A stretch of 64,000 nt of DNA from Blasia pusilla (Eukaryota), in the NCBI GenBank assembly GCA_050084515.1, contig CM114271.1, positions 6,510,001 through 6,574,000 on the forward strand, written 5' to 3'. The notes beneath the pieces were generated by a model, which was not told the origin of the DNA, ran no database searches, and saw nothing but the letters and a program-made list of their open reading frames with translations. The translations under genes and the position numbers were made by a program. Positions 16,774 through 64,000 of the stretch are shown piece by piece. Within the stretch, counting starts at the first letter, position 1, and each line of letters starts with the position of its first letter.

Positions 16774-17528
16774 CGTTGAAATCAAAATTCTACTTCCTCT
16801 CAGATCTTACTTTTAAAACTTTAAAGGATAGAAAGATAGTAGATCTCGACAGGATCCTCCACTGAACCATGTATATGAGGATAATCATTTACAAACCTAA
16901 AAGAGCAAATATGAAATGGATTCCATGTAGAACTGGTCTACAACTTCAATTGAGAATTGGGTGTTTGAAAAGCAACACCTTACTAGAATACACAAGTCCT
17001 AAAGAGAGGTGGTTGAAACCAAGATGCATGAATTTGTGCTAGATTGGTTCTTGGAGCATTCTCCACACCAATGCACATTCCTTCTTAGTTGATCAAGGCA
17101 CCATCAGAGGCTCAGGTATGTAGGAGCTAATCTCAAAACCCACAGCCTTGGAGGGCAAGAGTAGAAGTGAATCAAAGAAGAAGGGAAGAGAGGGGGAGTT
17201 ATATAGTTTCCTAGAAGAGACCAGCAGAAGGGACCACTACATGGTAAGGCAAGGTGGAAGGGCCAGCACAACAGGAGCAGGCCAACACACCACGAACAGA
17301 CCAACATATTATGAGCAGGACATCACAACATGCCAACACAGTAAGGTTAGGCCAGCACACCATGTGCACAATTAAACATAACCAAAACTCACAAGAATAG
17401 TTAAAGAGGTAACTAGTAAACTCACTGAGACTTGTAACTATGATAAACAACTAACCATAGTTTGCACAACTAACCATAGTTCAAAAACTAGAAGAAAACA
17501 TCAGAAAATTTTATGTGAAATCCTAACA
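16774..17528 (-). mobile_element. Solo LTR, copy 1 (Copia-like TGTTAG...TTCAAC termini)
   Basis: Reverse-complement homolog of 19215-19937; 5-bp TSD ATAAA at 16769-16773 and 17529-17533. Confidence 0.88.
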
Positions 17529-19214: not shown

Positions 19215-19937
19215 TGTTAGGATTTCACATAAAATTGTCTATTGTTTTCTTCCAGTTTTTGAACTATGGTTAGTTCTGCAAACTATGGTTGGAAGTTTAT
19301 CATAGTTACAAGTCTCAATTAGTTTACTAGTTACCTCTTTTAACTATTCTTATGAGTTTTGGTTATGTTTAATTGTGCACATGGTGTGATGGCCTCCCCC
19401 CCTGTGGTCTTTGGCCTATTCTCGGTGTGATGGCTCGCTCATCATCTTTGGCCCTTCCACCTTGCCCATGCAGTGGTCCCTTTTGCTGGTCTTTTCTAGG
19501 AAACTATATAACTCCCCCTCTCTTCCCTTCTTCTTTGATTCACTTCTACTCCTGCCCTCTAAGGCTGTGGGTTTTGAGATTAGCTCCTACAAACCTGAAC
19601 CTCTGATGGTGTCTTGATCAACTAAGAAGGAATGTGCATTGGTGTGGAGAATGCTCCAAGTACCAATCTAGCACAAACTCCTACATCTTGGTTTCAACCA
19701 CCTCTCTTTAGGACTTGTGTATTCTAATAAGGTGTTGCTTTTCAAGCACCCTGTTCTCAATAGAAGTTGTAGACCAGTTCTACATGCAATCCACTTCAAT
19801 TTTGCTCTTTTCAGGTTTGTAAGTGATTACCCTCATGTACATGGTTCAGTGGAAGATCCTGTCGGGATCTACTCTCTTTCTATCATTTTAAGGTTTTAAA
19901 AGTAGATTTGAGAGGAAGTAGAATTCTGATTTCAAAA
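19215..19937 (+). mobile_element. Solo LTR, copy 2 (same family)
   Basis: Starts TGTTAGGATTTCAC and ends GATTTCAAAA (CA mutated); 5-bp TSD ATATG at 19210-19214 and 19938-19942; internal TATATAA. Confidence 0.88.
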
Positions 19938-26200: not shown

Positions 26201-28215
26201 TAAGCCTCCCAGCCTCTTCGAACACACACCATCAAGGCTTGCACACAATTTGGATTGTCTTAATCAAACCACGATGCTCAGTCACAAAAATGTAAAGCCA
26301 ACTTAATATTCATGGAATGGCGGGAAAAACTAACATTCATGCACTATACGCATTGGTGCTCGATCTCTTTTGAATTCTTCTCTACCGATTCTAGCACAAC
26401 TAAGTTCACACACTATTGCAAGTTGTCTTATACATTGCATCCCCTCATTTTTATTGTCAACTTCATTATAGTAAGCTTTGTTCAACTTCTTCTCAACTCC
26501 ATTGGTACATCTCAGCCCATCGGCTTATTTTTTACTTCCTATTTTCGCACTACTCTACTATCACAACTACTTTTAGCTAGACGCATATCTTCACGTATTT
26601 ACATGTTACAGGTTCACTTGCGCTTACGCGATAGTGAATTTTTGGTTCCCACTTTTCACCGCACAACTCGCAACATGTTCACAACTTGGCAACAACTTTT
26701 CGGGGCTGCATTCTTGTTGAGTGTCTCTTCCCCCTCTCTTATTGGAAATTTAAAAATATTTTAAAAAGACCTTTAGAAAATCCTTTCTTTAGTAAAAAAA
26801 TTGTTTTTGTTGATTTTTTTTGAAATTCATGAAGTCCTCTCTTATTGAAAATTTTATACCTTTCTCCTTTCCCATCCCCTATTTTAAATCTATCCCTTAT
26901 TTTTGCTTCCCTTGCCTATTGAAATTTAAATAGCAAAAAATAGATCCACACAAGGAAACATTCTTTTATGAAAATTTGTCACCATCTTTTTCTTCCTCCC
27001 AAGTTTAAAATTACTTGTATCTACTATTTTTTTTAATCACTTGAATGAAATTTAATGTAAATTTTTTATAAAAAATATTATGATTGGATCAATCAAGAAG
27101 ATACATTTCAAGCCTTTTTCTATGTATAAAAAAATGAAACTTGTCCTAGAAGCGCAAACATCCTTATTAGAATAAATGTATCTTTACTTTTCAAAACTTT
27201 CATAGCTTTTCACAAGTCACTCCAGCATGAAAAAAATCTCACAAAGTTCTTAAAAACTAGTGTATCAAGGATAATCCAATTACTTACGTATACAAGATGT
27301 TCCTTACTTATAAATTGTGGTTGCAATCCGTAAAAGAAGAAACAAGGAACCTTTTAATTTTTTTTCAACAAAAACATAAATAATTTGAATTATACTATAT
27401 ATTTGAAGCTTTTCCCATGTTTTAGTTTCCATCATTGTCGCCAAGGCACCAAAGATCCAGATAAATGCACAAGCAAAAATCTTGCAATGGGCTTGGAGTC
27501 GTCCAAACTATAACTAAGGTTGAGGACCAGATAGAACGGCCTAAGAGAAATTCTTTAGATAAAGGGAGGGATGGATTTCTCTAGAATTATATCTAAGGGC
27601 AAAGATCTCCAAGGATATTTTGAACCTAAAATCCACCTAGGAAACCATGTGGGTTGAACCAAAGATACAAGATGGATTAAGAGGTTGCCTTTACGGTTTT
27701 GACGCAATGCAAAGTCCATATAGTTCTTAGATATTAACCTTAGATGTTAACATATGACTCAAATATTGAGTTGTACTTAAGACTTGTTTGAGTTCCCTTG
27801 GGTATTTCCCCTAGACATGTGAGCATCCTTTTAGGTCCCTTAATAATGAATGAAGTTTGTCTCAAGTCTTGAATGACTTACATGTGTGGGAGGGATGAGG
27901 AGTTAAGTCTAGATTTGATTCCTTCGGGATTTGTTGAGCTTGAAGGTTGACTTCACACCTAGACTGAAGAGATGCAAATCTGGTTGACCTAAAATGTATC
28001 ATGTATGAGTGTTTGGATGTAAATTAGTAAGGAGAACATGAAATTGAATGCAAGCTTCCGCGACACACAAGATTGACATTGAAGGAGATAGATGCACAAC
28101 ACATGGTATGAGAGCTAATCCTTGATAAGCGTGGACTCGGGTTATAGGAGGTGATTAGGCGCTTAGGAGATGTCATGGGCATACATATTGCTACACAATA
28201 CATATTGCTGGTCAC

Positions 28216-28582
28216 TGTTATGACCATACGGATTATGTCGTAGAGTATAGTGTGCTAGTAGAGGCCATTCCTTATGTAGGACCGTAGTGGCTTGATAGAG
28301 ATGCGGTTCCATATATAGGGTTGGGGGTTACTCAGTTGGGGGTGAGTCTCACAGAAGGGCCCGCTCTTAGGTTGGAGGATATAAGGTGGAGTGCACTCAA
28401 AGAACAGTCAGTTTTTTGAGTTGAGCCTGTTGCGTTGGGAGTTAGCCTTGGTATGAGTAGAGCTCTTGGCTATGGTGTTTCCCGCAAGCTTCGACCTAGA
28501 TTCTCCCATCGTGGAGTGGGTTTGGCTCGATTGTATGTGATTGTAAACGTGTTTTATGATAGTAGGTCTTTCACGGATTTCA
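28216..28582 (+). repeat. Terminal repeat A1 (367 bp)
   Basis: About 95% identical by eye to 37509-37876; homology stops after GGATTTCA. Confidence 0.95.
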
Positions 28583-30289
28583 CTCAAAGAACTGGAGTAG
28601 ATCGATGGTAGCTTCGATTGTAGATCAGTAGGATCTGGTTAGGGCTGATTGTGTACTCGGCCGTGGATGTTTGCGGCTTGTTGCCTATGTTGGAGGTGTG
28701 AATCAAGTGCGTAGTTGGTTGGGAAAGAAGCGCCTTGCTGAGAGCTTTCCAACGTGCTGTAGATCGCCGGATTTCGTCAAGGGAGTTGGAAGTTATCAAG
28801 CATTGAAGATTCTGGTTCGTGTTCGACAGTTTTCTGATGTGGAGAGCTTGGAGTGCGGAAGCTCTGTTGAAGTTCATCCAGATCGGGTGAGAGGTTCCTA
28901 TTGCTACTTGTATTGTGATCTCATGTGAAGCTATCTGCTCGAGTGCGTGGAGCGTTGCGGATTTCTGCGTGCATGAAATTTGGCGGAAGCGCTGTCGGAT
29001 TTGCGGTTCTAGAGGTGTGTGGACAGCAAGTTTGTCTGATTTTTAGCTCGGAGTACGGAGCTTGGATGTAGCTGAGTTTTGGTGGGGAGATAGCTATGGT
29101 GGTCAATTAAATTCTGATTGAAACAGATTTGATTTCGGTCACGTATTTGTGAAGTAATTTCTGATCGAAATTTCGCGGACTAGCTCAAGGTCTGGCTATG
29201 GTGGACAGCGGATCGGAGGGGTGGTTGGTTGGTCACTCGTTCATTTTTGGAGACGCCTATCCCGTTGGGGGCGCCCTGATTGGACCTCTCTCCATAGCGA
29301 AGCATGGCGAACGGGGCGATAGGGGCATGTCTCGAGCATTTGAGGCTTCGAGGCAACTCGTGGTAGCTCGGGGCGAGTGGGCGTGAGAGGCGGAGTAAGG
29401 AGCAAGGAGCAAGGAGCAAGCAAGCAAGCTTGCTTGCTTGGGCATGAGGCAATTTTTGCAGGATTTGGGATTTGAGTTTTGCATAACTGGTCACCCATCT
29501 TTGGGCTATTCTGCCTGGAGGACGCTTAATAGCTGAGTTCTTAACTATGCCGGTGTCTGCATGTTGTAGCTCATTTGGTCTTTGTTCGGAGATGTGTTAG
29601 GCGCTTTATGCATCTCAGTTTTTGGTTGATGTACCTCTAGCGCATAGTACGGTGTAGCCTCTCCATAGGTGATATTTTCAGGTGTCTTTGCGAGTTCGAC
29701 TAGCACGCGTCATCGACCATGGCGGAGTAGCTATTGCGTTAGAATTGTGTGGTGGGTTTTGTGGATTCAGAGGGCAACACGTTTGGTGGATTGTGTTACC
29801 TTGATTTCCATTTGCGACTGGAGGGTTGTCGTTGGATTTCTTGTGTTTGGATCCCCTCCATCGTGCTTCTTGCTTGCGCGCCCATTGTTAGGGTTGACGC
29901 TGATTTCCATAGTAGTGTTACTCCTGTGTGCTACTGATAGTGAGGCTGGAGTGATGACCAGTAGACCGTGGGAGGCTTCTTGTGGTGATGAGAGGTTAGG
30001 TTGCCTACACCCATAGCTAGTAGAGCTACAATAGTAGAGCGACATCGACGTCACTTGGATAATTTGGTGGTGGTGCGGCATCGGCGTTGGTCATCACGGA
30101 GCTGTCGGGTGGTCTGGTTGGGGACCGTGGTGCGGACAGTGGTGGTTTCACAAGGAGTGGATTTAGGTATCGGCTACCTTTTCCACTTCCGACGGTTGAT
30201 GAAGAGGAGGACGAGGGTGTTCCAAACACCGAGTCTTCTACGTTGTTATCGAGTGTTGCAGCTCCATTGAGTTGGGACATGGACGGTGG

Positions 30290-31470
30290 ATATGGGGCCA
30301 TGAAGGGCCCACGACGATACTGGGTGCAAAGTGGGTACCATTGAGTTGGAGGACTTCATGCGGGAGTTTGATACGTGGTGTGATATGCGGATGTTGCGGA
30401 ACGCACGTTGTTTACACCCTTCTTGGCTTGGAAGGGGTTGTTTCAGCACTTGGAAGGACCACCCATAGATGATTACCATGAGTTTAGGAAGGACCATGTT
30501 GCTGAGATTGAGGCATGGAGACAATATTGGTCTCCAGGCTATGTGTCTATCACCCATGGTGGTATTGGTAGTAGTGCTCCTACTATGCCGGCCCCCCAAC
30601 GCTGAGTGGTATGCAGTCTGAGCCGGAGTGGGGGTACCAAAGTGGAGGTACTAGTGGGGGTACTAGTGGAGGTACTAGTGCCCCACCATCGTTTAGCCTT
30701 GATTCTGAGAGTTCTTCAAGAGGTTGAAGAAGAACTATCAAGGAGTGAAGACGGAGAAGTTGAGGAATCTTAAGAACTTTGAGCGAAAGACTGGTGAGAG
30801 TCTTCGTGAGGCATACACACGTATGTGACGCTTGATTTCAGTTACCCAGGGTGTGATTGAGGATCAGGCAGTCCAGTTTTGGTATGGGATCTTGGACAGA
30901 GATTTGCGCCGTAGGGTACGTGATGCTACTCTTATGAGTGATGATTCACCCACATTGACCCATGTGTTTGCTCTATCTGAGAAGATTGAGCTTAACATGG
31001 TGAAGGAGAGAGTGGTGACATCCGCATTCAGTAGGGATACAACTACTACTTCTCGTGTTCAGCCGCCCACCTCACAGTCTCATAGTAGTGGTGGTGGTAG
31101 TAGTAGTGGGAGTCGTGGGGGGTACACGTGACCTCAGTCAAGTCCTAGAGGGACATTTGTGCAGAGACCATTGCCTTCATTTGCTGCCCAGCAAGCAGGG
31201 CGATCATGTTGGACATGTGGAGGTGATCATGTTAGGAAGTTTTGTCCCCAAGAGGATGGGAGACGGACTTTGGAGGATGGGCCTCGGTCGGCCCCAACTC
31301 GGTGTGATCATTGCGGGAGATTAGGTCATCCTCGAGAGCGTTGCTTTGATCTTCATCCGAGTTGAGATCAGGCCGTGGCCGTGGTGGAGTAGCTCCGAGA
31401 GGCCGAGGTGGTAGAGGTGGTAGGGGTGGTAGAGGTGGACCGGTGGTTGGAGAGCCTACGGTGGCTACCC
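30290..31470 (+). pseudogene. gag remnant with two zinc knuckles and an RGG tract
   Basis: LEDFMREFDTWCD, FERKTGESLREAY, CWTCGGDHVRKFC (~31207), CDHCGRLGHPRERC (~31303), GRGGRGGRGGRGG (~31400-31440). Confidence 0.8.
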
Positions 31471-32194
31471 CTACCACTCGACAAGTCGACTATGGTTGCC
31501 GGGATTGAGCAATTGGAGCGAGTTGGCTACTATGTTTGGTATCCAAAGATAGATCAGTTTGGGAGCAGGGGCTTCCACCTCTTATGGAGGGGATGATCTC
31601 TCTTATATGGCGAGTGCAAAGACAGGTTGAGGCATCAGTGCGATTCGAGAGGAGCCACTCGATCGTCGAGCCACGTGGTGCTCTATCAGAGTTGGACCCC
31701 TGCAGAGGGGTGAGGGGAGGCGAGGCTAGGCTTCCCAATCATTCTTGTTGGTGCTTAGGACTCCATCCATGGTTCCCTCGCAGCCTATTGAGCCGCTTGT
31801 GGGGGACCGAGGCATCTACATCGCGTGTAGTAGACACAGATGCGACATCAATGTAGTATTGCGGATGGCAACTTCGGTGTTGGGATCCCCATTATTTTCG
31901 GCCACGAGGCGATGGCTTTAGGAGTTGACTTAGCTCTGTATTTGATTAGTAGCCACGTTGTGAACGTGGGGTGTTTCTTGCTACACGTGTTGAGGTGGAT
32001 GAGGGTGTTGCGGTGGAGCGACCCTCTATGTCGAGTAGCATTGAGTACAAGTGCTACTTAGCGGCAAAGCGGGCGAAGATGGATGCATTACCGGCCCGGC
32101 CACCATTGATCGTGAGAGGCTTACACTGGTGTATGTATGTTGGACAACCGGAGTGGGATCTTCCGATTGGTGAGTCCCGGGGCAGTGTATAGAC

Positions 32195-32530
32195 CGGATA
32201 GAGTCTTGTTAGACTCGGTGCCCAACCTTGATGTTGGGAAAGGCGGCATGTATTGGTTTGGGTATTCGGAGGTCAGAGCTTGAGCCTTGCCCATTCCAGA
32301 TTCAAACATCACTTGGAGGAGCCAATGATAGGTCTCAATTCATGACACGGGAAAAGTTTTATGTACAATTGAGACCAGATCATGCGACTGATAGCTCTCG
32401 GTTGGGAGTATCTGCGGTAGTCACATCAGCCGAGTCGTATGATGTACTAGTTGGAGGAGCAGTATTGTACCCGATGGGTTTTCAGATGGATTCTTTGGTG
32501 AGACAAAGATCTTATAGACCAGGTTGGCAG
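32195..32530 (+). pseudogene. Aspartic protease remnant
   Basis: RVLLDS(G)AQPLMLGK across a frameshift at ~32218; YDVLVGGAVL closing motif. Confidence 0.7.
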
Positions 32531-32929
32531 TCCGGGGATGGACGTATGAGCCAAGTTCCTGTGAGATTTATTTCTGGGGCTCGACCAGGAGGGTCTTCCC
32601 CAAGAGTGTTAGCATCTGTGGCTGGTTTTAGTGGAGTAGTCACTTGGCCAGGAGACTTTTTGGAGGGTAATGTTTCTGCTATGGATTCTCCTGCCCATGA
32701 GGAGGTAGAGGAGGTCCCTATTTTTGCAGCAAATGGCATCCTCATCGTTGGATGTGCCACTTTGAGTTCAGCGGTGCACTACGGCAGAGGCGATTGCCTA
32801 GTGCAGAGGCTTGGTGTGAGGTGTTATACCTCACGAGGAAGAGGAGGCCCCACGGCGGACTCCTACTTCTGGCCTAGTTGGGTTATCCCCTTTGGATACT
32901 ACACCCATTGTATGGCAGTATCCGCCGGA

Positions 32930-33885
32930 GGGCATTTGTGTGTTAGATCTCTTTGGTGGGATTAGCACTGGTTTGGCTGCAGTGTTGCAGGCCGGTATTC
33001 TTGTGCGGAGATACGTGTATGTGGAGCGAGATGAGACGGCCCAGAGAGTCTCATCCCGACATATTGGTCAGTTGATGCGGAGATATCCTGAGTTGTTGCC
33101 GCCATCAGCTATTCGTGGGTACTAGCGTGCTTTACCATCACACATTGCATTGTTGGGGGCGCAGGACCTTGAGAGAATTGGTCCTATGGATTTGGTGATT
33201 GCTGGATGGCCATGTCAGGGTCATACACGTGCTGGTCGTGGTGAGGGATTACATGACCCTAGGTCTCGATTTTTTTGGGAGATGTTACGGGTGTTACGAC
33301 ATCTTCACGTTCATCGCACACGTGCTCTAGCTTAGCTTATTCGAGAATGTTCCATTGTTGGGTGACACTCGGACCCGGATGATGGCGAGTGTTCATGAGG
33401 TGCGGTCTTGATTGGACCAGCGGTGTTGTTGGATGCAGCATGAGTTGGCTCAGCGTGCACATCGCCCACGCTTGTGGTGGACAAACTTGTTGCCTAGGGA
33501 GGTTCTACGTCGAGCATATGATGCAGTGCAGCGGGATCCTCGCCTTACAGTGGATAGTATCTTGGATATTGGGTGACTTTCTCAAGTGGTGAGGGTTATT
33601 GATCGATCACCCATGGCAGCTGTGAACCATGTGGGCCAGCCTAGGATGGCGCTACCCACATTTGTGAGTTTTCCTCGTCACATGCCCTCTGAGGAAGGTG
33701 GTCGGGGCTTGTATGGGATTCTCATGTGCGGCGGTTGGTGGAGCCTAACGCTGATGAGAGAGAGAGAGCGTGCGATGGGATTTGCTACTGGTGTGACAGC
33801 GGTTGCTTCTATTTCTGAGGCTTCACGACGTCATGTGTTGGGTCAGGCCATGGACCTGAATTGTTTGACTTGGATTTTGAGTCTT
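32930..33885 (+). pseudogene. DNMT3-like DNA (cytosine-5) methyltransferase domain inside pol
   Basis: Motif I VLDLFGGI (~32940-32963), II YVYVE, IV DLVIAGWPCQ (catalytic Cys ~33213), V GLHDPRSRFFWE, VI LFENV (~33337-33351), VIII LLDAA..AHRPRLWWTNL (~33457), IX ERERAMGF..GVT, X SRRHVLGQAMDL. Unpermuted I-X order; stops and frameshifts present. Confidence 0.93.
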
Positions 33886-34239
33886 GGTATGGCCGAGCAG
33901 CGTCGACTTCGGACTATGTCTGTGGGTCTTCCACGCCTTGTAATGAGCTCGATGGCTAGGGGACAGTAGAGGCATCGGTCGGGGTGAGGAGAGTAGTATT
34001 TTGCATCCTTGGAGTAAATGGGATGTAATGGCTGGGCATGTGGAGTTGGTTGCTCATGCTAGTGGAGGAGTTATTTGCTCAGATGATGGTGTAGCTAAGG
34101 GTGTACCATCTTGTGAGGGGGTTGCGTAGCAGCCAATGGCATCGTCCTCTCCCTCTAGTGTGCCAGTGGAGGAGACTTGGGAGCCATTACTTGGGCCCAA
34201 GCTACGGCGGTGAGAAACGACGCTGACAAAGTTCCTACG

Positions 34240-35590
34240 TGCTTATAGGATTTGTTTTGCCTTTAGCATGAAGGAGTTGGGTTCTCTGGTTGGACCCGAT
34301 ATCTGATTGATTTGGCTAGTGATACGCCAATCTTCCGTCGTCCCCTACCGATATAGTGATATGGAGAGGGACTTGATTGAGTAGGACGTTGGACCTTTTG
34401 GAGGCTGGATTAGTGGAGTTGTCGCATGGAGAGTATGCATCGCCCACTTTGTCATGCTGCTAAAAAGGATATGCATGGCAACTACACGGATAGGCGGATG
34501 TGTGGAGATTACCGCCCTATCAATCGGAAAACCAAGGTCGATAGGTATGCCATGCCTACACCGAGGAGATCTTTGATGTGGTGGGACAGCAAAGATTTTC
34601 AGATTTTTGGATCTCGGCAGATACCATCAATTGCCGATTCGGGAGAGTGACAAGGCCAAGACAAAGATTAAGGGTGTCAACTCTTATGGCAAGGATTGTT
34701 TGTACCGGTGGAAATTCTTACCCTTTGGGTTGAAGAATGCACTGCCGAGTTTCAAAGAGTGATGATGGACAGGATCCTAGCGGGGTTGGATTTTGTTCGG
34801 TGTTACATTGATGATATCTTGGTGTTGATAACACGGTGGAGGAGCATCGATACATTTGCAGATGGTGTTTGAGCGGTTGAAAGCTCATGGTCTACGTTGC
34901 ATCCGAGGAAAGTGTAAGTTCTTCCATGAGGATGTTGAGTACTTGGGTCATGTGATCTATCCAGGTGGTTTGGGAGTTCGACAAGCAAAGGTGGAGGCTA
35001 TTGCACTTATTCGCGTCCGGTAGATGTGAGTAGAGTTCGAGCATTCATGGGATTGGCAAACTACTATTGGAGGTATGTGAAGGGATTTAGTGCTATGGCA
35101 AAGCCTTTGAACCAATTGCTGAAATCAGATCAAGAGTGGCACTTTGGGAGATGATCGGAGAGAGCTTTTGTGGAGCTTAAGGGCAGTTGGTGGCGGCGCC
35201 TATCTTGAGGAGACCTATCGAGGGCGCCCATTTCAGTTACACACTGATTGGAGTAGGTTGGGACTTGGAGCGGTGTTGACACAACATGATGATGAGCACA
35301 TGGAGTTTGTGGTGGCCTATGCAAGTCGTTCGAATAATGCAGCGGAGTCGCGCTATAGTTCATATGAGGAAGAGTGCTTGGCAGTAGTGTGGGCTGTGGC
35401 ACACTTTAGGTGTTACTTGTTTGGCACATTTACCCTTTTCATCGATCACCACCGCTCAAGTGGTTGATGGAGTCGGACAAGCTTACAGGGAAGCTTGCAC
35501 GGTGGGCTCTTATCTTACAGGAGTATGACTTCCATGTGGTACATAGACCTGGAGTTGCCAACCTTGATGCTGATGGGTTGAGTAGGAACC
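34240..35590 (+). pseudogene. Reverse transcriptase and RNase H
   Basis: RRMCGDYRPINRKT..DRYAMPTP, LPFGLKNA, CYIDDILV (34801-34824), [77 protein letters not shown]. Confidence 0.95.
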
Positions 35591-35979
35591 CATATACTAG
35601 CCAAGAGGATACAACTGGGGCTAGATGGCATGGCGAGGTTGATGAGGAGATGGTGCCAGGTTGGCATGCATCCGCCTTTTTATGTTGGTTAGGGGTGGAC
35701 TCTAGTATGGAGGACCACATGATATCTTACTCTAGTCAGAGGGTAGATGGCCAGCCTTCAGATCCTAAGGTTGGAGATGGTGGTACGGATCAGCGTGATA
35801 TTCATGATGATGCGTTGGTGTTGGAGTTCCTACGGACCAGTAGGGTGCCAGGCATAGTGAGTGCCAAGGAGCGAGACCGTGTTCTTCAACGTGCTAAGAG
35901 GTATCGATTGGAGGGAACACATATTCTCCGCGTGTGGGAGGATGGTAGAGTACGAGTAGTGCCACATTTGGCTCAGAGA

Positions 35980-37010
35980 GAGCGCATTGTGCGACATGCC
36001 CATGAGGAGTTGGGACATTTTGGGGTAAAGCGTACGTATAGCTTACTCCTTGGCCAATATTGGTGGCGTGGCATGCATACTCAGGTGCAGCAATTGGTGT
36101 CACGTTGTATGGTTTGTGACCAGGTAAGGGCATCATTTAATGCCCCTACACCACAATTACACCCCTTGCCTATTATGGGGTTGGGTTACCGTTGGAGTGT
36201 GGACTTTGCGGTACCGTTACCGTTGACTGTACGACATCATCGATATGTGTTGGTGATGGTGGAGCACTTCTCCAAGTGGATTGAGTTGGTGGCATTACCG
36301 GACAAGGCAAGTGAGGGAACGGCGTATGCGTTTCTGGATAGAGTGCTTAGTCATTTTGGTGCACCCGGTGAAGTCTTGACCGACCAGTCTGAGTTTTGGT
36401 GAGTTTGGTCTTGTGTGACAAGGCGTTGATTGATCATCGGACCACGTCTCGAGATCATCTTGAGGCGGATGGTTTGGTGGCGTGTGGTTCAGACGGTGAA
36501 GAGGGCATTGCGCAAGTATGGCCTCTGAAGGGCATCTTGGAGATTGGGATATTCGGTTGCCATGGTTAGCCATGGGGGTATAGGTTGATCGCCAAGCATC
36601 CTTGGCTTCCTTCTCACCTTATTTTTTACATTATCGGCCGAGATCCGGACTTGCCGAAAGCAATTGTCGGGAGTCTAGTGAGGTGGTGAACCTTGATGAC
36701 CGAGAGATGTGGATGAGGGTGTGTTCTCAACGGGCGGAGCTCTTTCGGAGAGTTATGCCAACAGCCTTTGAGAATCTTGCCATTGCTCAACACAGGGATA
36801 CGTTGCGGTATGCAACCATTCGGGGTGGAGGTTATCGACCATCGATTCGTAGGTTCCATGTGGGGGACTATGTCTATTTGCAGCAGATTGCCCCGACAAC
36901 GTTGGATGTGACGGCAGGCCACACTATTTTACGAGTGCGTGAGATGTTAGCTTTTGGAGTTCTCATGTTGGAGGGTCGTGATGGAGTTTTTTGGAAGGAC
37001 CATGTGCGTA
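35980..37010 (+). pseudogene. DDE integrase
   Basis: HHCC zinc finger (AHEELGHFG..YWWRGM..CMVC), WSVDFA, VEHFSKW, FGAPGEVLTDQ, RVVQTVKRAL, FSPYFL, FHVGDYVYL. Confidence 0.93.
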
Positions 37011-37084
37011 ATTGTGCGCCATGTCATCTTCCAAATGTGGATGGTACTGTTGACCCAAGCTTAGCCATGATACGTGCTAGCTTG

Positions 37085-37227
37085 AGGTGCATGTTGTGTG
37101 GGTCTCATGGTAACGCGGCCGTATGTTGGTGTGTGATCGGTGTTCTAGGGGTTGGCACATGATGTGTTTGACTCCACGTTTGGATGTTGTTCCTACTGGA
37201 AGGTGGATTTGTCCTCGATGTACTTAG
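37085..37227 (+). other. C-terminal PHD finger of the pol polyprotein
   Basis: RCMLCGSHGNAA/(frameshift)MLVCDRCSRGWHMMCLTPRLDVVPTGRWICPRCT-stop gives C4-H-C3 spacing with the typical W-x-C-P-x-C end. Confidence 0.9.
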
Positions 37228-37400
37228 GAGAGGTAGATGACTTGATCTTTGCATGATATGGATTACAAATGTGCGACTAACGATGGGGCAACCTAGCACC
37301 CGGCCTTCTGATTCGGGCACCCAAGAAGGTGTATAGCATGTAGTAGATGTATAGGGCTACCTGGGAGTTAGAGGGACCTAACCGCCTTGATTAGGGGCGA

Positions 37401-37982
37401 GTTGTGGTACACTTGCGTTTGTGGATACTCTCGTCTTTGTTATGTACGTATGTGAGTATGGTATGTCAGCGATGTATGGTGTATGACGATGTGGATTCGC
37501 ACGACAGCTGTCATGACCATACGGATTATGTCGTAGAGTATAGTGTGCTAGTAGAGGCCATTCCTTATGTAGGACCGTAGTGGCTTGGTAGAGATGCGGT
37601 TCCATACATAGGGTTGGGGGTTACTCAGTTGGGGTGAGTTTCACAAAGAGGGCCCGCTCTTAGGTTGGAGGATATAAGGTGGAGTGCACTCAAAGAACGA
37701 TCGATTCTTTGAGTTGAGCCTGTTGCGTTGGGAGTTAGCCTTGGTAGTGAGTAGAGCTCTTGGCTATGGTGTTTCCCGCAAGCTTCGACCTAGATTCTCC
37801 CATCGTGGAGTGGGTTTGGCTCGATTGTATGTGATTGTAAATGTGTTTTATGACAGTAGGTCTTTCACGGATTTCAGTTGTGGTACACTTGCATTTGTGG
37901 ATACTCTCGTCTATGTTATGTACGTATGTGAGTATGGTATGTCAGCGATGTATGTTGTATGACGATGTGGATTTGCACGACA
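37401..37982 (+). repeat. 3' split-repeat block B1(37401-37506)-gc-A2(37509-37876)-B2(37877-37982)
   Basis: B1 and B2 are 106-bp near-identical copies (GTTGTGGTACACTTGC...GCACGACA); A2 matches A1. Confidence 0.95.
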
Positions 37983-38943
37983 TCACATCCACACCACACC
38001 ACACAACACCGATCTTCCCGAACGCACGGGTAAATCCACACATATAAAAAAATGAACTCATGCATGTACGTCGAGATCACACAACAAAAGTAAACGGGAC
38101 ACTCGGCCTAAAACTCCACTCCTCAATCTACATTGGCATATTGAGCCTCGTCCACCCTATGCTATCAGGGAATCCGGACCCTAGCATCCTGATCCTATCT
38201 TACACAAGAACAAGAGAGGTGCTCCAACAACCCAACATGAGAGCAATGGCTCAGGAAAGCCATCCCTCTCCCATACATAGGTGTGGGAAGAGCCAAAATG
38301 CCCTTCCCCTAAAAATAGCAATCCTCCTAGAAACCTACGTGCACAGGTATGAGGGGCGGGTGACCTATTGAACAAGTCATCCGGATGTGAAAGACCCAAA
38401 CAAAAATTTCGTTAGAAACGATGATCGTGACACAACGGAACTATCCTCAACCCCATCCAACACCTCAAGACGAAGTTACACTCAAGACAGTCCACTGACT
38501 CTCTATGTCGTCGTCGCGATAGATCCCTACATATCGGCTACTCAGATGTGATAGAGAACACAAGGTTGTAATTGAGGTTTGGACACTCGGGGAGGGATGC
38601 AGGCGACAAATAAATAATTTAAACAAGCCAAGGCTTGAAGATGACACCATTGGATGGATCTTCACCAAAACGTCGAGTCCAATGCCAGAAACCAAGAGAG
38701 AAACCACTACCTAACTAGGAGCCAAAGAATTATACTTTAATATCCAACACACAATTTTTAGGCATGAGAATGTTATATATTTGAGAAATTCAAGCAAGCT
38801 TTCAACGCTAAATTCAAATGATCTGGGGCTCTATCTTGAAATGAAGGATCTCATGAATATCATGTGAGAATAAATGACCCAAAAAAATAAGTGAATGGTT
38901 GAGTTGGAGATGGATTGGGCATCCATTTCTATCAAGAAACTAA

Positions 38944-53939: not shown

Positions 53940-55290
53940 TCAAAATAGCCGCCGAGATGGAAACTCGATCCAGAAATGATGATTATTGTCGCAATAGGCG
54001 CCACCATAATCGAAATAGCCGCCGTTGTAGATTATTCGTTTTCTGAGAGGTGATCCTACTCAGAATAGCCGGGAAAATATCCGCCGTTGAAGTGATTTTG
54101 ATTTCCTGAGATGTAAGCCTCCTCACAGTATAGCCGCCGAATTAGCTGCCGTGGTAGTTTTGTAGTTATCCTGAGAGGGTCGCCTTCCCAAAATAGCCTC
54201 CGAATTAGCCGCCGTTGTAGTATTATTGTTGTCTTGAGAGTTGAGCCTAGTCATAAGAGTGGTCGACTTAGCCGCATTTGTAATTGATTTCCTTTCTTAA
54301 GAGCTTAGCCTATTGAGAATAACCACCGAGATAGCCGCCGTTGTTGTTGTTTTGTTGTCATGAGAGGCGAGCCAACTCAGAATAGCCTCCAAATTAGCCG
54401 CCGTTGTAGTTTTTTTGTTCTCTTCAGAGGTGAGCCAACTCAGAATAGCCGCCAAATTACCCGCCGTTGTAGTTGTTTTGATCTTTTCAGAGGTGAGCTA
54501 ACTCAGATTTGTCGCCGAATTAGCCGCCGTTGTAGTTGTTTTGTTGTCTTCAGAGGTGAGCTAACTCAGAATAGTCACCGAATTAGCCACCGTTGTAGAT
54601 GTCTAACTTTCCCTAGAGGTGAGCCAACTCAGAATAGCCGCCGAATTAGCCGCCCTTGTAGTTGTTTTGGTTTCGGGAGAGATTGGGCTTCTCAGAATAA
54701 CCATCCAAATAGCCGCCGTTGTTGTCATTTTGTTTTCATGAGAGGCAAGCCAACTCAGAATAGCCACCAAATTAGCCGCCGTTGTAATTGTTCTTTTTCT
54801 CCTCAGAGGTGAGCTAACTCAGATTTGTCGCCGAATTAGCCGCCGTTGTAGTTGTTTTGTTCTCTTCAGAGGTGAGCTAACTCTGAATAGTCACTGAATT
54901 AGCCACCGTTGTAGATGTCTAACTTTCACTAGAGGTGAGCCAACTCAGAATAGCCGCCGAATTAGCCGTCATTGTAGGTGGTTTGGGTTTTGGGAGATAT
55001 TGGGCTATATCGACTAGCCTCCGAAATAGCCGCCGTTGTAGTAATTTTTTTCTCTTCAAAGGTGAGGCTACTTAGAGTATCCTCCGTTGTAGTTTTTGTA
55101 CTCGATAGATGAGCCTACTCAAAGCGGCGGTTGCCGTTGCGAGAAGAGGTGATAGTACTCGAGAATAGCCGCCTAAATAGCGACCATTGCGGTTGTTTTG
55201 TACTCGAAAAGGTCACCTACTACGAATAGCCGCCGTTGCAGTTGTCTTGTACTTCTCAGAGGTTAGCCTACTCACAGTAGCCGCCGTAGT
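53940..55290 (+). repeat. Tandem array, 63-bp unit with ~315-bp higher-order repeat
   Basis: Unit GAGGTGAGCCAACTCAGAATAGCCGCCGAATTAGCCGCCGTTGTAGTTGTTTTG..; variant GATTTGTCGCCG recurs 315 bp apart; decays toward both edges. Confidence 0.9.
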
Positions 55291-55397
55291 GGATATTTGG
55301 ATGACATAATGTAAGTCTTCATTTTTTGATTTGTATTGGCGTGGCGTAGTCATCGTATTTGTGAAAGTTAGATTCATTAACAACCCTGGGTCATCAT

Positions 55398-58391: not shown

Positions 58392-59059
58392 GCTTTACTC
58401 AGGAGTGGAAAGTTTATATTCCCAAGAGACTAGAGCAGATACTACTGAAGAACTTAATGTAAAGGGTAGTGTTGTATCAGGGGGAAATTTGGTGCAGTCT
58501 ACCATGGAGAATGTTTCCACTCCTATGGATCTTGGTAATAGCGCTTCTAATCGCATACCAAATAGTCTAGTATTTCCGAGTGTTTCTCTTGTTTATGGGA
58601 AGTCTGAATCGATGAAGAGTCGATGGTCGTGAGGAGCAAAAAATCTTGGCATATCCTTGGTAGAACTTGATACTGATTCCCAGTGGAATCCAGAGGAAGA
58701 AGCATTTCATATTAGCTTGGCAGAAGAAGCTGCGAAAGATTTTCAGATTGTAGAAAGAAATCTATAAACTCAGATGGAATTGTCATATGTAGCCCATTTT
58801 TTTCTTGGTGTGAAAAATTATGATATTTGTTCATGTTGGAATGCAAAATATGTTCTCAGTGACGTAATAAAGTTCACAAACCATAATGGACCAAACCCTT
58901 CCCGGTTCAAGAAGAAACAGGCTTGGAGTGACGCCTATTCTCCATGACTGCTAATCACACGCCGAGAACTAAATCACCAAACGTTATACCTCGCTCTTTC
59001 TGAGGCTTTTGTTTGTTTAACTCCCTTCCCTCCCTCTCCTACCTTCTCCACTCAAGCCC

Positions 59060-59700
59060 GACGGCTATTGTCGGGACGGCTGCTATTTCCGGGCTGGCGG
59101 CTACTCTCGGGACGGCGGCTATTGTCGGGCCGGCAGCTATGTTCTAGGCGGCTGGCTCTTCTCTGGACGGCTGCTAATCACAGTCCGACGGCTAATCTCT
59201 GGACGGCGGCTAATCACAGGCCGGCGGATATTGTTGGCACGACGGCTACTTTCTAGGCGGCTGCTATACACAGGCCGGCGGCTATGTTGTAGGCGGCTGG
59301 CTCTTCTCGACGGCATTTGCTAATCTAATCCGGAGGCTAATCGACGGGCGGATATTGCTTTGGGACGGCGGCTAATCTCGGACGGGCGGCTAATCACAGG
59401 CGGATATTATTTGGCACGGGCGGCTACTTTCTAGGCGGCTGCTATACACAGGCCGGCGGCTATGTTCTAGGCGGCTGGCTCTTCTCTGGACGGCGGATAT
59501 TGCTGGGACGGCGGCTATTTTCTAGGCGGCTGCTATACACAGGCCGGCGACTATGTTCTAGGCGGCTGGCTCTTCTCTGGACGGCGGCTATTCACAGGCC
59601 CGACGGCTATTGTCTGGACGGCTGCTAATCACAGTCCGGCGGCTATTCTCTGGACGGCGGCTAAGGGAGTTAGGCGGGCCTCAGGACGGCTGCTAATCAC
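59060..59700 (+). repeat. Tandem array of GGCGGCTA-containing ~20-bp units
   Basis: Recurrent GGACGGCGGCTA / TTCTAGGCGGCTG / CACAGGCCGGCGGCTA. Confidence 0.9.
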
Positions 59701-59749
59701 ATCCTCCCTCTCCTTCCATTTTATTTTCTTCTACACCCTCCCTCTCCTT

Positions 59750-60097
59750 TGTCATGAACATACGGATTATGTCGTAGAGTATAGTGTGCTAGTAGAGGCC
59801 ATTCCTTATGTAGGACCGTAGTGGCTTGGTAGAGATGCGGTTTTATACATAGGGTTGGGGGTTACTCAGGTGGGGGTGACTTTCCTAGTAGGGCCCGCTC
59901 TTTGAGTTGAGCCTTGGCTATGGTGTTTCCCGCAAGCTTTGACCTAGATTCTCCCATCGTGGAGTGGGTTTGGCGCGATTGTATGTGATTCTATACGTGT
60001 TTGTGGTGTTTGTGGATACTCTCATCTATGTTATGTAGGTATGTGAGTATGGTATGTCAGCCATGTATGTTGTATGACGATGTGGATTCGCACGACA
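59750..60097 (+). mobile_element. Solo A+B terminal repeat of the DNMT-Gypsy family, with internal deletions
   Basis: Starts TGTCATGAACATACGGATTATGTCG and ends GATTCGCACGACA; colinear with 37509-37982; flanks CCTT / CCTC (4-bp TSD, one mismatch). Confidence 0.9.
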
Positions 60098-61045
60098 CCT
60101 CCCTTCATGTTTCCTCCTTTCCCTCCTTTATTTTTCCCTCCCCTTCATTAATTTTTCCCTCCCCTTCCTTATTTTTCCTCCCTCTTCTTCAATTTTTTTC
60201 CTCTCCTCCCTTCATGTTTCATGCATTCCCTGCTTTATTTTTCCCTCTCCTTCCTTATTTTTCTTCCCTCTTCTTCAATTTTCTTCCTCTCCTCCCTTCA
60301 TGTTTTCTCCATTCCCTCCTTTATTTTTCCCTCCCCTTCCTTTTTTTTGCTCCCTCTTCTTCAACTTTTTTCCTCTCCTCCATTCCTTCACTTTTCTTAA
60401 CCCCTTCATGTTTTCTCCATTCCCTCCTTTATTTTTCCCTCCCCTTCCTTTTTCTTGCTCCCTCTTCTTCAACTTTTTTCTTCTCCTCCATTCCTTCACT
60501 TTTCTTAACCCCTTCATGTTTTCTCCATTCCCTCCTTTATTTTTCCCTCCCCTTCCTTGTTTTTCCTCCGTCTTCAATATCTTTTTTCCTCTCCTCCCTT
60601 CATTTCTCTTCCATTCCTAGTTTTTCCTCCCTCTTCTTCAACTTTTTCCCTCTCTCTTCAGTATCTTTTTTCCTCTCCTCCCTTCATTTCTCTTCCATTC
60701 CCTCCCCTTCATTTATTTTTCCCTCCCCTTCCTTATTTTTTCTCCCTCTTCTTCAATTTTCTTCCTCTCCTCCCTTCATGTTTCCTGCATTCCCTGCTTT
60801 ATTTTTCCCTCCCCTTCCTTTTTTTTGCTCCCTCTTCTTCAACTTTTTTCCTCTCCTCCCTTCATTTCTCTTCCATTCCTAGTATTTCCTCCCTCTTCTT
60901 AACCCCTTCATGTATTCTCCCCCCCCCGTCTCCTTCATTTCTTTCCCTCTCCTTCCTCAATTTTCTCCTCCCTCCCCACCCTAGTTTTTCCACCCTCTTC
61001 TCCCTTTTTTTTCCTCTCTTTTCAGATAGCTTCATCCCCTTCCTC
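60098..61045. repeat. Polypyrimidine (CT-rich) minisatellite, also 59701-59749
   Basis: Almost purely C/T on the plus strand, with recurring CCCTTCATGTTTTCTCCATTCCCTCCTTTATTTTTCCC units (~110-bp period). Confidence 0.9.
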
Positions 61046-61724
61046 TCAAAATATAGCCGCTGGTACAGAAGTGCGGCTAAGGGAGTTAGGCCGGCCTGCG
61101 GCTACGGTCTTGTGAGAAGGAGTCAAGCCGCTGCGGCTATTCTCAGACGGATGTAAGGAGTGAAGCACACTGCGGCTATAGTGCGTACTAGGGGACAGGC
61201 TAGCGTCTAGGTATGTAAATCGACCTTGGATATTGAATAGAAACCTAGAATGCATGCGCGCGAGTGGTGGACGGGCAAGCAGGGCTAGGACGTGAGGCCA
61301 ATTTTCAGATTCAACGTTGAGATTTCAATTATTAGGTCAATTTTCAGATTTCACATTTCAGATTTGAGGGTGATGAAGGTCGAATGTGCTCTTGGGCCGC
61401 TTGCGATTGCAGAGCGGAAGCGGCTACTGTGCGGATTGGGGATGAGCTTTTCGGCTGATTGCGAATGTAGAGGGACGGCTATCCTCTTGGGCGGATTGCG
61501 ATTGTGGAGCTTTGGCGGCTAATGTGTGGATTTCGGACACTAGGGTCTCAAGTGCAGCCCGCGGCAGGTTTGAGGTCAAATTTATGCCATTTGAAGTGAA
61601 ATGCCGAGCTTGGGGTTTCAGTGATTTCTCCTTTAGGTCAATTTGAAGCAATATGGTGTGGCAGATTTACCTTGGTTTTGCGGGTTTGGACGCAGGCGGG
61701 TAGATGCCTTGTTAGTAATACGCA

Positions 61725-62520
61725 AGATGGTAGAAATTAGCCGTAGCCGGCGGCTAATTTCAAGATGGAGGTACGAGCCGCTTCCGGCGGCTCATTTCAA
61801 GGCGGGTAGATGCCTTGTTAGTAACACGCAAGCTTCTTGAAATTAGCCGCAGCCGGCGGCTAATATCGAGATAGAAGAAATAGATACCTTGGTAGTAGTT
61901 TCAATATGGCAGAAATTAGCCGCAGCCGGCGCCTACTTGCAAGATGCTAGAAAACAACCGCAGAACCGCGGCTAATATCAAGATGGTAGAAATTAGCCTC
62001 AGCCCGTGGCTAATTTCAAGATGCTAAAAATCAGCCCCAGACGGCGGCTAATTTCAAGATGGAGGTATGACCAGCTGCCGACGGCTAATTTCAATATGGC
62101 AGAAATTAGCCGCAGCCGGCGCCTACTTGCAAGATGTTAGAAAACAGCCGCACAACCGCGGATAATTTTGAGATGGTAGAAATTAGCCCCAGACGGCGGC
62201 TAATTTCAAGGTGGAGGTATGACCAGCTGCCGGCGGCTAATTTCAATATGGCAGAAATTAGCCGCAACCGGCGCCTAATTGCAAGATGCTAGGAAACAGC
62301 CGCAGAACCGCGGCTAATTTCGAGATGGTAGAAATTAGCCCCATACGGCGGCTAATTTCAAGGTGGAGGTATGACCAGATGCCGGCGGCTAATTTCAATA
62401 TGGCAGAAATTAGCCGCAGCCGGCGCCTAATTGCAAGATGCTAGGAAACAGCCGCAGAACTGCGGCTAATTTCGAGATGGTAGAAATTAGCCGCAACCGG
62501 CGGCTAATTTCAAGATGGTA
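61725..62520. repeat. Tandem array of palindromic 38-bp units with 152-bp higher-order repeat; one more unit at ~63940-63985
   Basis: AATTAGCCGC-agccg-GCGGCTAATT-TCAAGATGG; variant GGAGGTATGACCAG at 62061, 62213 and 62365. Confidence 0.9.
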
Positions 62521-64000
62521 GACTTCTCCTCCCTTCGGGAGTTTTCATGGCGCTTGCAGTTAATTGATACAGCGGTTCATGGTGAGATTATCCTAGATGC
62601 GAGGCCTACGGGGACGTCAACTCTTCAATTTTGTGGCGATGAATGAGATCTCCTGCGAGTGGTTTTGTGGCTCTTGGCTTATATTTCGGAGATTGATTCG
62701 CAGGAAAAATGTCTCCAAATATTCTGGACAGATGACTCAAAAGCGGTTCAGGCTGTTGCGCTTTCACCGATACTTTCCGTGCTGGTTCCTAACGTCACGA
62801 GGAAATACTCTTCTGCCGTGGAGAATGCTGCACTAACAGGTCTTTTCCGCTCACTACTATCTCTCAAGCGGAACGGTGAGGCTGGGAAGGATAGGCAGTT
62901 GAGAGAAGGCAGGGCATCTTGTTTGTAATGTACTTGCATCACTCACTACATATGATTGATATGAATAAGACCAACGAATGAAGAAATTTTCTGCACGGTT
63001 TAAATCCATTCTCGTTAACTTTGGTGTGGACTCTGGAGCGTCACGCTTCCTGGACCAGCTTAAATATACCTCTGAACATTTGGTTAGAATGCATTCAGAA
63101 TTTGGAGATACGCTTCACGGCTAGAGTTCTGCTACTTCAATGCTACATTGACCTCTGCAAAGGCTTCATTTGGGTAACTTCACTGCTTTTGCTTACCTAG
63201 CCAATGCCACTTGTCCTGAGCCTCCAGGAGATGCAATGTTTTCTTGGATTGCTCACAATCACCAGAAGTTATGACCATCACTTAAGTATTTCTTCTGTGT
63301 TTGGATGCAAAAATCTGAATTTACACTTAATTTCATTATCAGTGGTTTATGTAAATACACAAATAGATTTTTGGCATGGTCCAAGCTCTTGTAATGATTT
63401 TTCATCCAACTTTCCAACCACTTCTTAGAAAGCAAGAACTTATTCTGTACTGACATTATGTGTATGCAGATGCTTGCAACATTTAGTGCTGATCACAAAA
63501 TTGTGTATCATGAAACAATTTTCAATTTTGAGCTGGAGGTATGAGAGCTTTGCCTCTTCTTCCTTGTATTTTATACATACAAGAGAAAACTGGTAATTTC
63601 CTTTGTTACTGTTTCTAACTGGGCAGGTGGACAGTGTCTCCTTATGAACTGGGATGCCTGCTCAGTCATGTCAGATGGGGACTCCAGAAGTGCCTCACAT
63701 ATCCTCTTGTGTGGGACTTCTATCTTTTTTCTCCTGCAGAGATTCACTCAAAGATTTGAGGCTTCCAAAACATCACAGATAGTTGATTCCTCAGCAATTG
63801 AAATTGGACTATCGACCATAGGACCTGAGCTTCCCTCCGGTAAAGCCTCAAGTACAGAGTCCTTGGGTAATTTGATTGGGCAGAATTTGTTTTTTCATCT
63901 GCTCTTCTGATCTCTGGTACTGGCTAATATCAAGAGGGTAGTAATTAGCCGCAGCCGGCGGCTAATTTCAAGATGGAGGTATGATGGCTTTGACAGTACT

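Follow-up and report, generated by a model that had tools for sequence, protein, structure and literature searches.

In the 64,000-nt stretch of Blasia pusilla DNA analyzed here (the window), repeat finding and self-BLAST delimit an element of about 9.8 kb (28216-37982) with the layout A1-X-B1-GC-A2-B2 (Table 1). A1 and A2 are 96% alike, as are B1 and B2. Thus, B1 ends in the sequence of the element's right end (CACGACA), and A2 opens with that of its left end (TGTCATG; TGTTATG in A1). The outer ends read GGTCAC/TGTTATG on the left and CACGACA/TCACATCC on the right, so that the entire element is bounded by the 4-bp duplication TCAC. Between B1 and A2, the two ends lie head to head as CACGACA-GC-TGTCATG, in which seven of eight base pairs are palindromic around CAGCTG. 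The original prediction, made from this sequence before any comparison, was that the exact right end is joined to the left end through a 2-bp GC that is missing from both outer termini, and this is confirmed.

Table 1. Positions in the window of the repeats, coding domains, and putative signals of the element and of a solo copy of the same family
Feature	Position	Strand	Basis or remark
Target-site duplication TCAC, left copy	28212-28215	+	Matches 37983-37986
A1, left terminal repeat	28216-28582	+	Self-BLAST; begins TGTTATG; 3' part is the probable R-U5
TATAAG in A1	28380-28385		
Decayed R-start segment TTTTTTGAGT in A1	28412-28421		
Putative self-priming primer-binding site, ACTCAAAGAAC	28582-28592	+	Abuts A1 end; complementary to TTCTTTGAGT in A
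X, internal region	28583-37399	+	gag-pol frames broken
C-5 cytosine DNA methyltransferase domain fragment (PF00145)	33126-33332	+	Pfam, E value of 6e-7
Reverse transcriptase end (RVT_1)	34832-35020	+	Pfam, below the Pfam cut-off
RNase H (RT_RNaseH)	35123-35464	+	Pfam, E value of 7e-24
Integrase (H2C2 zinc domain and rve core)	35410-36399	+	Pfam
AGGGGCG, polypurine-tract-like	37393-37399	+	Immediately 5' of B1
B1, internal copy of right terminal repeat	37400-37506	+	Ends CACGACA; putative U3 start
Integrase-end palindrome CACGACA-GC-TGTCATG	37500-37515	(.)	Head to head; sequence reading and motif scan
GC spacer	37507-37508	+	Separates the abutted ends
A2, second left-repeat copy	37509-37876	+	Self-BLAST; begins TGTCATG
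TATAAG in A2	37673-37678		
Hairpin in A2, ACTCAAAGAAC / TTCTTTGAGT	37688-37698 / 37705-37714		
Drop in RNA depth in A2	37747-37882		
A2/B2 joint, TTTCA/GTTGTGG	37876-37877	+	Probable U5 end fused to U3 start
B2, right terminal repeat	37877-37982	+	Ends CACGACA; RNA cover nearly nil
Target-site duplication TCAC, right copy	37983-37986	+	
Solo A-B copy, same family	59750-60097	+	Repeat finding and self-BLAST; within CT-rich tandem repeat

Two other kinds of repeat were noted in the window. Long inverted repeats (16776-17528 and 19215-19935), with arms of ~750 nt that are 87 to 96% complementary and about 1.7 kb between them, may be a foldback or long-TIR element. Tandem arrays lie at 54063-55297, 59054-59704, 60107-61042, 61713-62550, and 63921-63984. 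Their repeat periods are 63 nt, 18 nt, ~86/108 nt (CT-rich), and 76/152 nt, and two of the arrays flank the solo A-B copy.

The 91 stop-to-stop open reading frames (ORFs) of at least 45 amino acids (51 plus-strand and 40 minus-strand ORFs) were searched against Pfam, and matches were found in plus-strand ORFs only; the 40 minus-strand ORFs gave zero Pfam matches. The window integrase frame is interrupted ahead of the last residue of the D,D,E triad, the E, which lies beyond the break. In the alignment, H198, H203, C233, C236, D265, and D325 are invariant across 38 integrase sequences. The integrase ORF matches 150 longer proteins, the best of which is from Calypogeia fissa (82% identity); further homologues come from Marchantia, Sphagnum, Closterium, and Klebsormidium nitens, and many have PF00145, reverse transcriptase (RT), RNase H, integrase, and PHD domains. 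Retrotransposon proteins of K. nitens are 39 to 47% identical to the window integrase, and many of these carry PF00145. Intact relatives have the order protease, C5-DNA methyltransferase (DNMT), RT, RNase H, integrase (H2C2 plus rve), and PHD, and a C5-DNMT upstream of the RT is also found in P0055, P0036, and L017. Distant integrase homologues (P0110 to P0112 and P0117) carry a Dam-type adenine methylase (PF05869) in place of the C5-DNMT, with which the available text of a 2026 preprint on DAM-LTR elements agrees.

The Ty3/gypsy pol order of RT, RNase H, and integrase, with an HHCC zinc domain and a DDE core, is present in the window and its relatives. As in Ty3/gypsy elements, there is a putative primer-binding site (PBS) beside the presumptive U5, a candidate polypurine tract (PPT) beside the presumptive U3, and a short target duplication. 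In place of two identical terminal LTRs whose TG...CA tips are the integrase ends, the element has A only on the left and B-GC-A-B on the right. Judged by these sequence features, the window element is a decayed Ty3/gypsy-like element and a liverwort relative of the Gypsy-DNMT3 lineage (KnitGypsy-Dnmt3).

The split-direct-repeat layout could also be read as that of an element of the DIRS order, recombining at the junction by means of a tyrosine recombinase. However, no tyrosine recombinase (PF00589) was found in the 91 window ORFs of both strands or in the proteins of five relatives, intact ones included, and pol encodes an H2C2 plus rve integrase. The TG...CA ends and the 4-bp duplications described below likewise contradict this reading, and we give it virtually no chance of being correct. 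The element encodes a DDE integrase, which agrees with the retroviral-type integrase of the original prediction.

Recurrence of the junction in related elements

The integrase alignment was used to scan metagenome contigs, in which it detected 80 loci. Before any counts were made, those with common flanks were merged (L002=L004, L005=L007, L034=L035=L036, L045=L047=L048, L008=L038, L019=L021, L039=L041, and L074=L076). Automatic layout detection skipped 14 of the 80 loci (<3 kb) and succeeded in 4; the remainder were read by eye.

With the window included, 19 independent B-NN-A junctions were obtained, and the distance from ...ACA to TGT... is exactly 2 bp in all 19, at integrase identities that go down to 41%. 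The spacer is GC in 10 of them (window, L007, L036, L013, L079, L018, L042, L050, L072, and L074=L076), AC in 4 (L053, L063, L080, and L066), GT in 3 (L037, L064, and L017), and AT (L004) and AA (L047) in one each. Thus, of the spacer conservation that was anticipated, the length is invariant but the sequence is not. The most distant families, with integrase identities of 41 to 44%, have kept GC (L042, L050, L072, and L074=L076). We infer that GT, AC, and AT may be what C>T changes on one or both strands of GC would be expected to yield, the cytosines of CAGCTG being in CHG context. Because 18 other independent elements also have their ends head to head with 2 bp between them, comparison indicates that the junction is a conserved trait of the family and not a product of chance.

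The full A1-X-B1-NN-A2-B2 layout is found in the window, L004, L007, L036, and L047, and also in L080, where B2 is truncated; its right-hand parts are visible in L013, L037, L053, L063, L064, and L079. All of the complete A-X-B-NN-A-B copies examined have broken frames. Target duplications of 4 bp flank all eight two-ended elements (TCAC, TCTC, AAGG, CATA, TTTG, CCAC, TACA, and TGTT). The window copy is old and broken, and it could by itself be taken for a one-off rearrangement without a role, produced by tandem LTRs, nested insertion, or unequal recombination. However, the layout, the 2-bp spacing, and duplications that flank the whole recur in the 18 other elements, which belong to several subfamilies, and no duplication is found at the A/X or X/B borders. 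The related loci refute a one-off rearrangement, for which we see a negligible probability.

The expectation that other copies carry the junction, borne out by these 18 elements, does not hold for all copies. The junction is absent from 12 or 13 independent A-X-B loci, in which B is followed by unrelated DNA (L001, L006, L008, L010, L019, L023, L025, L029, L046, L068, L061, and L071; L067 is doubtful), and has been lost by internal deletion from two copies (L041=L039 and L011). Both ends are on the contig in L001 and L019, and each of these is A-X-B with a 4-bp duplication (TACA and TGTT, respectively). A search for B2 in L042, L050, L072, L066, and L076 found none; these contigs end, have a truncated A, or continue from A into X. 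For L017 and L076, which are intact relatives, the contigs go from A into X, so that B2 is beyond view.

An inverted-repeat scan with spacers of 0 to 8 was too noisy (185 matches over all spacings), and a motif scan with spacers of 0 to 10 was used instead. This gave 56 matches, with 21 at a spacer of 2 and 35 at other spacings; those of the 35 that were inspected were a repeat inside B or the R-start hairpin of L017 or lay outside the 3' region. Reads from the species cross the junction, and no insertions or deletions are listed at 37506-37509. The RNA reads with A in place of G at 37507 number 17 of 120 and 17 of 175; for X4 and X1, the corresponding figures are 4 of 2,078 depth units and 975 of 1,961, respectively.

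Two further observations concern particular relatives. In a subfamily with 45% identity, the B end has two copies of GTCACGACA, 15 nt apart, and the inner one forms the end of L061 (~2330) and L071 (~2325), as though each of the two were able to act as the right integrase end. L074 and L076, which are one element (99.96% over 9.1 kb), represent an intact relative with a 2,082-aa ORF. Their contig continues from A into X again (a unit of 8,847 nt with a 99.9% repeat), which is either a GC-joined head-to-tail tandem array or an assembly loop.

Putative priming signals and transcript

A run of G is found immediately 5' of B1 in every family examined. For the window, where this candidate PPT is AGGGGCG, RNA reads place GG behind 37393 in 59 of 60 and in 101 of 113 reads. 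The bases adjoining the A end are complementary to a stretch of A that starts 26 to 33 nt after the TATA box, and the pairing is kept while the PBS and R-start sequences differ between families. The pairing is 19 nt long in L050, 17 in L007, 16 in L017, 15 in L080, 13 in L047, and 12 in L019; decayed copies, including the window, have 10 to 11 nt. Among 200 shuffles, the maximum pairing was 11 to 12 nt, and matches of 13 to 19 nt occur in five unrelated sequences (L050, L007, L017, L080, and L047). Complementarity was not above that of the shuffles in L042 and L076. The covarying pairing has the appearance of a signature of Tf1-type self-priming.

A second copy of the PBS (ACTCAAAGAAC) is found in U3 just 5' of the predicted RNA start (37688-37714 and 28395-28421 in the window). 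It pairs with the R-start segment as a 10-bp hairpin; L017 has a 12-bp hairpin in the same place, and L080 has none.

Two stranded RNA runs with the same species label were mapped on 37101-38100, where they have a strand bias of 50- to 100-fold. Depth is 130 to 220 from the end of X, through B1 and the GC, to the start of A2, goes from ~148 to 20 to 32 between 37713 and 37882, and is 1 to 4 in the first B2 bin and ~0 to 4 in the flank. Reads that pass from the A end into the start of X (CTCAAAGAACTAGAG...) number 27 in run X22, and 8 X4 contigs follow the same path. Because the reads span X-B1-GC-A2 and stop before B2, the working LTR would be B-GC-A, with the integrase sites within U3. In this arrangement, U3 would comprise B and the GC together with ~195 nt from the start of A, and the remainder of A would be R-U5. 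The transcript would then have the form R-U5-PBS-X-PPT-U3-R, with B2 outside the RNA.

Two features of the RNA data are not accounted for by the B-GC-A model. The sole pile-up of read starts (25 molecules, in X22 only) is at 37670, which is 35 nt 5' of the predicted RNA start, and 13 RNA reads (4 plus 9) have a back-joint from 37826 to 37538. The RNA cover has no depth step at R.

The original prediction also proposed that the junction could act as a template for a circle junction. This part is not upheld, as the junction appears to sit in the U3 of an ordinary U3-R-U5 unit (B-GC-A); normal reverse transcription would copy it to both ends, which makes a template unneeded. A related possibility is templating in the manner of DIRS elements, in which the outer ends are missing from the RNA, the internal B1-GC-A2 bridges and rebuilds them and closes a circle, and the integrase then opens that circle. 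The layout does equal the split direct repeats of PAT/Ngaro as given in the available text of PMC7192593 and in the legend of PMC5890265, and an RNA without the first ~190 nt of A1 (from the predicted start) and without B2 would fit such a scheme. However, the PBS is at the A end, the PPT is at the B start, and R is in A, and with these positions two-jump reverse transcription would restore B-GC-A at both ends with no bridging template. The nearly nil RNA cover of B2 also speaks against this kind of templating, as do the variable A/B joints described below, which resemble end joining rather than templated closure. We therefore regard it as quite unlikely.

From transcript to inserted copy

The joint between A and B is precise in the window, L036, L007, L053, and L047. 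Variants of it have an added A (L063 and L064), an extra ~7 to 8 nt (L079), or an extra 17 nt (L004), and L080 has an added AAT (three PBS-side nucleotides) and is missing ~150 nt of B. In the solo copy in the window, ~40 nt are deleted across the joint, and the flanks (CCTT and CCTC) are alike at three of four positions. The A/B differences between copies fall exactly at the joint, which probably represents the U5 end fused to the U3 start, a circle-type joint. Since an integrated copy is bounded by the A start and the B end and has A and B fused, its structure implies a cDNA, circular or otherwise end-joined, that is cut open within the palindrome. The integrated layout would thus call for an intermediate with its cDNA ends joined and one junction opened.

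We consider it probable, although far from certain, that the element uses a B-GC-A LTR, that its cDNA tips are joined, and that its DDE integrase opens the internal palindrome before insertion. Transcription would begin ~30 nt past the TATA box of A1, pass X, B1, the GC, and A2, and terminate inside A2. The minus strand would be self-primed as in Tf1, with the 5' end of the RNA paired to the PBS abutting A1, and the plus strand would be primed at the G-run abutting B1. Given the PPT against B1 and the PBS against A1, the resulting cDNA would be (B-GC-A)-X-(B-GC-A). The integrase ends (TGTCATG... and ...CACGACA) would then be head to head inside U3, 2 bp apart, and not at the cDNA tips. The tips, that is, the U5 end and the U3 start, would be joined via a 2-LTR-type circle or by other end joining to form the A/B joint. 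The integrase would nick after CA on both strands in the palindrome of the 5' repeat, producing CA-3'OH ends with 2-nt 5' overhangs, and the opened A-X-B-GC-A/B would be inserted with a 4-bp stagger. The cut geometry that was first proposed is sound, as cutting CA/NN on both strands leaves overhangs of this kind, and the proposal that an integrase opens the junction gains support from the comparison of copies (layout, 2-bp spacing, and 4-bp duplications).

A symmetric circle predicts mirror copies with the layout A/B-NN-A-X-B, of which there are 0 among 14 independent left ends. This suggests either that one palindrome is preferred or that mirror copies decay faster. It is possible that the 5'-repeat palindrome is preferred because it is double-stranded first during plus-strand synthesis, and it is also possible that mirror copies are lost faster via their close A repeats. 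The A-X-B copies may have arisen directly, if a linear cDNA was cut at each of its two palindromes, which would require no circle, or they may be later deletions between B1 and B2.

A free circle would also be unnecessary if the integrase cut the 5'-repeat palindrome in linear cDNA and inserted the new ends, with host repair then sealing the old A-end and B-start tips to each other in the chromosome. This route yields an identical product and accounts for the one-handedness of the copies if the 5' repeat is double-stranded first, and the heterogeneity of the joint fits end joining. However, it leaves a break in the chromosome until repair takes place, and overall we find it rather unlikely. 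In the favored reading, by contrast, the tips are joined before insertion.

The CAGCTG core (37504-37511) has a CHG cytosine on each strand, and the element encodes a C5-DNA methyltransferase. It is a very improbable speculation that this enzyme marks the core and thereby allows fresh cDNA to be told apart from junctions in the chromosome.

In the accepted view, what LTR retrotransposons and retroviruses integrate is a linear cDNA that has the integrase sites at its tips, and 2-LTR circles are seen as dead ends. The present layout is not obtainable from tip-to-target integration of linear cDNA alone, because the integrated copy keeps what appears to be the U5/U3 joint and is bounded by sites internal to the presumptive U3. 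Tentatively, and with rather less than even confidence, we propose a streptophyte lineage of DDE-integrase retrotransposons that is conserved between charophyte algae and liverworts and whose integrase sites have shifted away from the LTR tips to a head-to-head palindrome in U3. In this lineage, end-joined (circular) cDNA would be obligatory, and the integrase would open it in the manner of a site-specific endonuclease. If true, such a lineage would embody, in natural and fixed form, the "circle junction" model once put forward for retroviral integration and since abandoned, and split direct repeats would arise without a tyrosine recombinase. Confirmation would provide a natural system with joined cDNA as a productive intermediate and would mean that split direct repeats have arisen in association with two unrelated kinds of integration enzyme. 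Annotation would in that case be affected as well, because such elements would be misannotated by LTR finders built to look for a pair of identical terminal repeats.

Comparison with known systems

The circle junctions of IS3 and IS30, in which abutted ends 2 to 3 bp apart are the active substrate of a DDE enzyme, resemble the present junction in their abutted ends and short spacer. However, these are bacterial DNA transposons in which the transposase forms the junction in each cycle and which have no reverse transcription. PAT/Ngaro elements of the DIRS order share the A1-X-B1-A2-B2 split direct repeats and, by implication, a joined or circular DNA as the integration substrate. They use a tyrosine recombinase and are not known to make target duplications, whereas the elements described here have a DDE integrase, TG...CA ends, and 4-bp duplications.

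At the retroviral 2-LTR junction, 4 bp separate the CAs. In the window family, the ends are 2 bp apart, and the palindrome is inherited between B and A, inside the presumptive U3, with the probable U5/U3 joint elsewhere (A/B). Palindromic 2-LTR junctions are cleaved by the PFV and HIV-1 integrases, according to the available text of PMC1180852 and PMC1905944. The likeness is that a palindrome of abutted integrase ends is cut internally to give processed ends, as would be the case here; the difference, as far as these texts describe it, is that the retroviral palindrome is itself the U5|U3 joint and is made by end joining.

Tf1/sushi elements have a PBS that matches the beginning of their own RNA, and not a tRNA, by complementarity, and self-priming has also been predicted for the plant Tcn1 clade (available text of PMC6317226). 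These elements, as described there, differ from the present family in having ordinary LTRs, the tips of which are the integrase ends.

The closest likeness in layout is to KnitGypsy-Dnmt3 of Klebsormidium nitens, whose repeats are described as DIRS-like, A-coding-B-A-B, in the legend to Fig. 4 of de Mendoza et al. 2018 (PMC5890265). A literature search for a described mechanism for this layout gave that legend only, supplements aside. As far as PMC5890265 describes it, KnitGypsy-Dnmt3 shares with the window family a Gypsy-type pol with a Dnmt3-like C5 methyltransferase 5' of the RT, as well as the repeats. The hosts differ, being algal in the one case and, from the best match in Calypogeia fissa, liverwort-like in the other, and the main text of PMC5890265, its supplements aside, does not treat the junction, spacer, duplications, PBS and PPT, or mechanism. 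Thus, the repeat layout is known for an algal relative, and the internal palindrome, the fixed 2-bp spacing, the permuted LTR, and the implied joined-cDNA substrate appear to be new.
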